A DNA stretch of 64,000 bases. It comes from Eledone cirrhosa. Lineage: Eukaryota. This document shows, piece after piece, positions 49,988 through 50,557 of this stretch (its first letter is position 1; every line of letters starts with the position of its first letter). The DNA lies in NCBI GenBank assembly GCA_964016885.1, contig OZ024745.1:18972001-19036000 (forward strand), in the 5' to 3' direction. The translations under genes and the position numbers were made by a program. The notes beneath the pieces are model-generated. The model was not told the origin of the DNA and searched no databases. It saw only the letters and a list, made by a program, of their open reading frames with translations.

Positions 49988-50553
49988 ATATGAGAGACGT
50001 AAAATAAGAAAATTATAAAATTAACTTACTTACTAAAAAATCACTTCCAACTAATTAGTTTCTGGAATGGAGTAAATATATTTTCCGAAGAAACATATAA
50101 AAAATCATTCCGTCATCAGGAAAGTCTTTTTCCGTATAGGTCTCCAGGCATAGCGAGGACACTGGAAACTTATTGAAAAAATAATTCAGTGGAATGGAAA
50201 TAGCGAAGCGTGGACTGGATTCCAAGCCATTGAGAAAATCACTGCCTCCTCGTCTGTGGCAAATTCAAAAAGAATCAATCACGTGACATCGAGGTCAATC
50301 AGTGGAAAGCGAGTGGTTATTAAGACAGCGGCCAGCTTACTACCATAGTAGCAGTCATGGCCAAATATTGCTCGACAAATGAATTGGAGATAATTATAAG
50401 GAATTTATATCTAGTAACATTTATATACACACAGATGCATATCAATGCTAGCAAATATATAGGTTTTGTCTTATTAACAATGTGGTTCAATGCATGGGGT
50501 TGCAGAACAATAATATGAGAGACGTAAAATAAGAAAATTATAAAATTAACTTA

Positions 50554-50557
<4 letters not shown>
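49988..50557 (-). mobile_element. Retrozyme-like non-coding element: 525-bp unit with perfect 45-bp terminal direct repeat and intact HHR
   Basis: ATATGAGAGACGTAAAATAAGAAAATTATAAAATTAACTTACTTA at 49988-50032 and 50513-50557, flanked by TA-rich microsatellite. No ORF. Confidence 0.8.
50043..50125 (-). ncRNA. Hammerhead ribozyme with long stem II
   Basis: Minus strand: ACTTTC-CTGATGA-C-GGAATG...CATTCC-A-GAAA-CTAATTAG-TT-GGAAGT. Confidence 0.85.

Follow-up and report, generated by a model that had tools for sequence, protein, structure and literature searches.

A sequence-only reading of a 64,000-nucleotide stretch of Eledone cirrhosa DNA (assembly GCA_964016885.1, contig OZ024745.1, positions 18,972,001 to 19,036,000 of the forward strand; hereafter the window, in whose coordinates all positions are given) singled out positions 49988 to 50557 as its best retrozyme candidate, a non-coding unit with one hammerhead ribozyme on the minus strand, inserted in TA repeats. 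The locus raises the question of what such an element is, from which form of RNA it was copied and by which enzyme. The answer that we consider probable is that the insertion belongs, as a truncated copy, to a non-coding tandem element that is present in high copy number, carries a hammerhead fold and has two fixed 3' ends in (TA)n. The element is likely a non-autonomous Penelope-like element (PLE), of the kind termed non-LTR retrozyme, and is likely copied from circular RNA by the enzyme of a Hydra-clade PLE.

Layout of the insertion and its hammerhead fold

The perfect 45-bp direct repeat described for this locus is exact (49988-50032 = 50513-50557); its copies are spaced by 525 bp and the match stops at both edges. 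With the unit numbered q1 to q525 along the minus strand, the parts of the insertion are as follows.

49988..50557, minus strand: the whole insertion, 570 nt (525-nt unit plus 45 nt), a single 5'-truncated arm with the short 3' end of its family
50033..50557, minus strand: repeat unit, 525 nt (q1 = 50557, q525 = 50033)
49988..50032, minus strand: overlap, a second copy of q1-45; 49988 is the short 3' end
50395..50512, minus strand: 118-nt 'tail' between the short (q45) and the long (q163) fixed 3' ends, internal in this copy
50485..50508, minus strand: conserved bulged stem-loop, G(T/C)TCTG...AT(T/A)GA(A/G)C, just past the short end
50036..50131, minus strand: type I hammerhead fold, helix I with its extension; core CUGAUGA at 50119-50113 and GAAA at 50062-50059
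within this fold, minus strand: helix II, 6 bp, prolonged by a UUCG-capped hairpin (loop at 50089-50086); C·A mismatch at 50112/50063
50059-50050, minus strand: helix III, palindromic, 10 nt
50048..50049, minus strand: predicted self-cleavage site after GUU (50049/50048)
50024..50033, minus strand: two overlapping GTAAGT, 5'-splice-site-like, about 15 nt after the predicted cut site
50549-50554, minus strand: a further 5'-splice-site-like GTAAGT
50556..50648, no strand: (TA)n tract at the 5' junction, target repeat, 46.5 TA units
49968..49991, no strand: degenerate TA/TACA run at the 3' junction

The TA-repeat context is thus as described, and no target duplication is readable at this insertion; position 49988 would be the reverse-transcription start used by this copy. 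The unit has a GC content of 35% and, taken as a circle, a folding z of -4.5 (against 60 shuffles). It is indeed non-coding: read around the unit, ATG-started frames reach at most 17 aa on the strand of the ribozyme and 53 aa on the opposite one, and the longest frame from stop to stop has 76 aa. The recent origin that had been argued from the identity of the 45-bp repeats is better indicated by the 99.2% identity between this copy and one on another contig, the perfect 45-bp match being a weak clock. As a candidate for activity this copy does not rank first in its family: as it carries one ribozyme only, it cannot release unit-length RNA and is therefore probably a dead end, and it is the insertions with an arm spanning at least two cut sites (45 of 109) that are candidate source loci. 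Directly to the left lies a very high-copy short repeat (49780-49965, with an inverted 95% copy at 47522-47708), which we would guess to be SINE-like.

Helix I covers the span that had been reported for an intact hammerhead (50043-50125) and can be extended to 50036-50131; the core, too, is present, and the word intact requires some qualification. An invariant C·A mismatch occupies the base of helix II, where a G-C pair is expected, and may weaken the predicted ribozyme; a scan with Rfam gave no hammerhead match at the gathering score or at E up to 10, probably because of the long insertion in helix II; and the isolated piece has a fold of lower energy than that of the ribozyme, its minimum-energy z of -0.09 being uninformative. 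Support for the fold comes instead from covariation. In 30 family copies, picked by hand from 84 distinct versions and spanning 79-100% identity, pairing is found in 93% of cells, as against 33-50% for slid controls, and two-sided changes affect 6 of 29 pairs, of which helix II accounts for two, its hairpin extension for three and the extension of helix I for one. Family B, about 70% identical, adds one more compensatory pair in helix II and carries another extension hairpin, so that compensatory change preserves the ribozyme stems from 99% down to about 70% identity; this pattern of substitutions argues that the fold is under selection. As to activity, the accessible text of PMC4209133 links the palindromic form of helix III to dimeric cleavage, that of PMC7229834 describes an axolotl retrozyme with U·U at the base of helix II which cleaves, and does so better as a dimer, and that of a 2026 preprint (10.64898/2026.07.22.740005) reports that 8 of 9 predicted retrozymes failed to cleave.

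Several other elements were observed in the window, where the hammerhead core pattern has 15 matches against 4.3 expected. A small two-armed element at 20085-20530 carries minimal hammerhead cores at 20306 (minus) and 20375 (plus), both its arms ending at about one point, unlike those of the 525-bp family; further hammerhead-like cores or half-cores lie at 33136, 46352-46382, 52984 and 20876-21105. The minus-strand frames of 980 and 254 aa at 24989-28877 presumably belong to a Helitron, judging from Rep/helicase-like motifs; the broken transposase-like frames at 8620-9353 (plus) we take, again from motifs, to be mariner-like; and a 37-bp satellite with a strong C skew (293 copies) fills 53133-63867.

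A dispersed family with two fixed 3' ends

The genome search gave 1,807 first-look candidates, 39 of which were scored; the 48 full-length matches listed are 98-100% identical, with 525-bp tandems among them. Exact matches genome-wide number 2,901 for q1-35 and 2,168 for the 3' half of the ribozyme, with 0 for both reversed controls; since the first 100 matches of q1-35 fall into about 63 insertions, the insertions carrying this 35-mer are estimated at roughly 1,800. From a sample composed of the 30 best matches, 30 anchored matches per end type and about 35 unanchored ones, 112 distinct insertions were mapped, 14 duplicate loci having been dropped. The mapped copies, 78-99% identical, are both dispersed and tandem, with near-identical copies on many contigs; in arrays, units join units directly, up to about 5 of them, and an attached ORF was found in 0 of the 112 insertions. 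The repeated 45 bp is the most conserved segment of the element and, being found across the copies of the family, is part of it.

These features (a short, non-coding tandem unit with low GC and one type I hammerhead fold, no LTR, as the overlap length varies with truncation, and dispersed mobile copies) are those of a non-LTR retrozyme, and the earlier assignment to a retrozyme-type element is supported. An autonomous PLE would bring an RT plus GIY-YIG ORF, which was found neither in the unit nor attached to it in the 112 insertions, while type I topology, one ribozyme per unit and junctions in TA tracts are at variance with plant-type LTR retrozymes. No paper on the 525-bp family was found in a literature search to which Repbase and most subscription papers were external, so that the family may already be catalogued.

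Mobilisation by a PLE is indicated by the structure of the copies, which show 5' truncation, partial tandems, an inverted 5' arm and an optional tail at one end. Nearly all mapped pieces (174 of 191) end at either a short (q40-49) or a long (q160-165) site, and TA repeats follow 162 of 168 arms, 6 pieces of family B having been dropped; the 5' ends, on the other hand, are scattered. It had been suggested that permuted start points among copies would support a circular template; varied starts are no proof of a circle on their own, the varied ends turn out to be 5' truncations, and the 3' ends are fixed at two sites. Exact junctions between an end and TA repeats number 1,112 for the short and 225 for the long site genome-wide (reversed controls 0), an imbalance due to sequence drift near q163, as the unanchored sample is nearly balanced (25 short against 26 long ends).

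Head-to-head insertions, 64 of the 112, combine a long with a short arm in 57 cases and two long arms in 1, two short arms never being observed, while 6 have a non-standard end; the 48 single-arm insertions, including that in the window, have 25 short ends, 22 long and 1 other. The same long-plus-short combination is found in all mapped two-armed insertions of two further families, the sister family C (18 of 18) and the coding family D (9 of 9), and at 33 of 54 head-to-head junctions the arms overlap by 1-15 nt. By analogy, the 118-nt gap between q45 and q163 is read as a longer version of the PLE tail, published at 30-40 bp, and the near-strict pairing suggests that each strand has a start site of its own. 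The 5' ends are in mild excess at q425-448 (p 0.03 in one of seven windows), to which no claim is attached. At the loci L062, L004, L010, L098 and L006 an arm of the 525-bp family lies head-to-head with an arm of a different PLE-type family; two RNAs may have been co-inserted there, or one element may have inserted into another with a deletion.

RNA template, candidate helper and rival explanations

The predicted cut site is read through by 149 of 168 arms, and 5' ends fall on it no more often than expected (3 observed, 3.0 expected); an insertion at GUU is seen in 2 of 193 junctions, and a one-base-shorter, older variant in 16 more. In view of the clean junction and the missing pile-up of 5' ends, a cut linear monomer as template, or template jumping at the cut site, was rejected, and the template should be either a circle or an uncut multimer. 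The suggestion that a unit-plus-overlap structure is the expected trace of a circular or concatemeric template stands in part: the 45 bp is indeed an overlap of the unit with itself, but an uncut read-through transcript of a tandem array leaves the same picture as a circle.

Further discrimination was sought in private alleles, defined as absent elsewhere in the sample (about 100 of roughly 2,000 insertions). A private allele is present in all overlapping copies in 14 of 71 insertions with doubled coverage, 8 times across both arms, a rate of 0.20 private shared alleles per insertion, compared with 0.017 for each pairing of two different insertions. In the younger family C, sampled through its best matches, 8 of the 24 young arrays have private alleles that extend over the whole array, in up to 7 of 7 units. 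Individual cases could be accounted for by a parent array that was already homogeneous. Mosaic arrays exist (L119 and L121; L172, L174, L175 and L181), 27-33% of the differences within insertions are alleles present in at least three other insertions, and in most pairs the distance within an insertion is not below that to the nearest outside copy, a minimum that is biased low. Taken together, the variant patterns favour rolling-circle copying of a one-unit circle, and the template is judged probably circular rather than linear. The cleanest material in this respect is family C, with a 483-bp unit over 99% identical and arrays of up to 9-10 units (L111 and L171-L190, e.g. G000 C1:82116244-82120684).

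The most serious competitor, which we hold unlikely, keeps the same element and helper class and has the enzyme copy an uncut linear read-through transcript of a tandem array, with arrays growing and homogenising later as DNA and the ribozyme taking no part in copying. A lizard PLE used unprocessed RNA, its insertion being unaffected by ribozyme mutants (PMC11167929, in its accessible part), and unequal crossover is invoked for array growth in what could be consulted of the preprint 10.64898/2026.07.22.740005; read-through of the cut site and the clean junction fit uncut RNA equally well, and mosaic arrays are known in the sample. However, as long as there are no jumps, copying of a linear template can make arrays shorter but never longer, yet array-wide variants occur in young arrays that reach 9-10 units, sometimes in both opposite arms; the ordered inheritance of unit-to-unit differences between arrays was not seen (55 same, 93 opposite); and the ribozyme stems are maintained by compensatory change over the whole range of identity given above.

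Two other explanations concern the origin of the arms and of the unit itself. Head-to-head structures might arise by fold-back self-priming on one template or cDNA and not from two primers at two starts, in line with the interpretation of palindromic inverted junctions of rotifer Penelope elements in the accessible text of PMC3846280, and the 5' ends of the two arms are indeed at most 25 nt apart in 11 of 54 junctions (5.6 expected, p about 0.02); nevertheless the other 43 of 54 join distant positions, the short overlaps found at most junctions speak against it, and the near-constant, different outer ends would be left unexplained, so that we consider this very improbable. Slighter still is the chance that the unit belongs to a coding PLE, as its terminal repeat or UTR, or that the 45 bp is a target or local duplication. 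The unit is indeed organised like the terminal repeat of a PLE, with a ribozyme, a splice-donor-like motif and a tail, and, with about 100 of roughly 2,000 insertions read, a rare coding version could exist; but units join units directly in arrays and the mapped insertions are all devoid of an ORF, so that the possibility, raised in the sequence-only reading, of a 3' UTR of a coding PLE fails. Likewise the 45 bp, which might have been unique to the locus, recurs inside the element in thousands of places, as the exact q1-35 matches testify, and its interpretation as a target duplication was discarded.

The preferred explanation, a ribozyme-bearing RNA circle copied by a PLE enzyme, calls for a helper, and the conserved stem-loop offers an indication of its identity. 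This structure, with fixed flanks, a bulge and a variable hairpin, is common to sister non-coding families (with units of about 457-660 bp) and to the coding family D; one pattern for it has 9,402 matches against 2 in the control, and the pattern was widened once family D was known. In its outer stem a U-A pair has switched to C-G with the predicted fold unchanged, and the stem-loop is likely to be a protein-binding signal. An automatic cross-family alignment, which misplaced the variable hairpin, was left out of the results. Other families with the stem-loop are B (about 560 bp), E (457-467 bp), H (657 bp), I, J (about 590 bp), K and N (loci L092, L126, L191-L220, L010, L185, L008, L017 and L140); in several of them the hammerhead is of the long-stem form and helix II starts with a mismatched base pair (C·A, A·G or U·U), and no hammerhead core was flagged in the copies of J and K shown.

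Family D is a coding Hydra-clade PLE of 3.6 kb (L250, L251, L260 and L264), with the hallmarks RWK, DKT, CxCX5C, CxxC and CxH (according to the motif list in the accessible text of PMC8557442) and 6 uninterrupted frames of 719 aa among 150 scored. It has a long-stem hammerhead with a base mismatch, the stem-loop with a compensatory change, and TA-fused ends about 77 nt apart; both fixed ends were observed upstream of the ORF, flanked by a splice-donor-like GT that follows the ribozyme and an AG that precedes the frame, and hence probably lie inside a retained intron. By blastn, family D has no similarity to the 525-bp unit beyond the stem-loop motif. A second Hydra-type coding fragment (L289) has the motif downstream, and about ten other Hydra-like families are present in the genome besides those with mapped ends. 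In two insertions the long arm of the 525-bp family is head-to-head with the short arm of D, and at a junction with family H two short arms meet; being mixed, these cross-family junctions provide a hint only. On sequence grounds the helper is likely a Hydra-clade PLE, family D being the best candidate.

A young, two-armed coding PLE was also observed in the window itself (13429-17084), with a 624-aa RT/GIY-YIG frame (14621-16495), hammerhead cores at 16781 (plus) and 13684 (minus), and a tail of about 45 nt on one arm only; its family has frames of 1,217 aa, 4.1-kb tandems and 19,665 candidates, and its CX4CxxC linker suggests the Neptune type. It is not favoured as helper, as its ends differ and the stem-loop pattern has no match in it or in two full-length relatives.

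Under the preferred explanation, the life cycle would start with transcription of a locus of at least two units, from which the hammerheads, probably acting as dimers through the palindromic helix III, would cut out a 525-nt monomer to be ligated into a circle. The helper RT/GIY-YIG protein would bind the stem-loop and, as suggested by the fixed ends and by published PLE biochemistry, nick both strands of a (TA)n tract and start reverse transcription inside the RNA, on one strand at the short site and on the other at the long site 118 nt downstream. Each round of synthesis would pass the ribozyme junction of the putative circle, as the observed read-through indicates, continue for up to about 5 units and stop at scattered points; the two cDNAs would be joined head-to-head by microhomology, or a single arm would survive, as in the window copy, where 1.09 rounds from the short site would give the 45-bp overlap. 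A wider reading is put forward tentatively, as a serious possibility that falls short of being probable: the genome would hold a whole guild of RNA circles with ribozymes (families A, B, C, E, H and I at the least, with J and K sharing the signal) hijacking Hydra-clade PLE enzymes via one bulged stem-loop, the paired enzyme priming the two strands of TA repeats at different fixed sites and rolling round the circle. If true, this would be direct genomic evidence for a rolling-circle origin of PLE tandems and for an asymmetric two-primer rule behind the PLE tail.

Relationship to known systems

The closest relatives of the element are the metazoan non-LTR retrozymes (Cervera & de la Peña 2020, PMC7229834; Li, Clavereau & Pollet, 2026 preprint 10.64898/2026.07.22.740005), which, according to the portions of these sources that are accessible, share non-coding, GC-poor tandem units, each with one type I hammerhead, a dispersed occurrence as anything from monomers to multimers, and a proposed circular intermediate and PLE helper. 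The 525-bp unit exceeds the 150-450 bp given in PMC7229834 and lies within the 51-972 bp of the preprint, and helix II differs in being long, UUCG-capped and with a C·A mismatch at its base; no description of double 3' ends, of the long-plus-short rule, of TA targeting or of a shared recognition stem-loop was found in the same portions. Expression and circles are shown for the published examples, while the 525-bp family is known from genome sequence alone.

With the Hydra-clade PLEs (Craig et al. 2021, PMC8557442, accessible sections) the family has in common (TA)n targets, a hammerhead, partial tandems, an inverted 5'-truncated arm and a tail often at one end only, the difference being the absence of an ORF from the 525-bp unit and the length of the tail, 30-40 bp in that source against 118 nt here, about 108 nt in family C and about 77 nt in family D. 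For the Poseidon element PAc of Anolis, the accessible part of PMC11167929 (Frangieh et al. 2024) shows that the PLE protein cleaves and extends both DNA strands and that reverse transcription starts internally at two sites downstream of the hammerhead cut, the tail being the stretch between them, an arrangement matching that proposed here; unlike here, the PAc starts are in the first codons of the ORF. For PAc no preference of either strand for one of the two sites was observed, whereas the arms of the 525-bp family are almost always at different sites, and in vitro it used uncut linear RNA with a dispensable ribozyme, whereas the variants of the 525-bp family favour a one-unit template. Plant LTR retrozymes, as summarised in the accessible text of PMC7229834, are likewise non-coding and ribozyme-bearing, with terminal redundancy and a circular RNA stage (here a putative one), but their hammerheads are of type III, and they possess long LTRs, PBS/PPT and target duplications of 4 bp, in contrast to the type I fold, the 45-nt overlap set by truncation and the unreadable target duplication of the window element.

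The retrozyme class and its link to PLEs are already published, and a circular model was proposed earlier (PMC4209133 and PMC7229834, in the parts available); the 525-bp family is a new non-LTR retrozyme family, which adds a variant ribozyme, a long tail, a quantified long-plus-short rule, a common RNA signal that points towards the Hydra clade and, from variant patterns, evidence in favour of rolling-circle copying. How tandem and inverted PLE copies are built, and what the hammerhead does, are stated to be open questions in the accessible text of PMC8557442 and PMC11167929, and the mechanism of retrozyme mobilisation is, in that of the 2026 preprint (10.64898/2026.07.22.740005), still to be worked out. 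As the 525-bp family offers a small RNA, two mapped starts, a stem-loop as candidate binding signal, a simple (TA)n target and, in family D with its intact frames, a candidate helper, both the choice between a circular and a linear template and the long-plus-short rule become directly testable.
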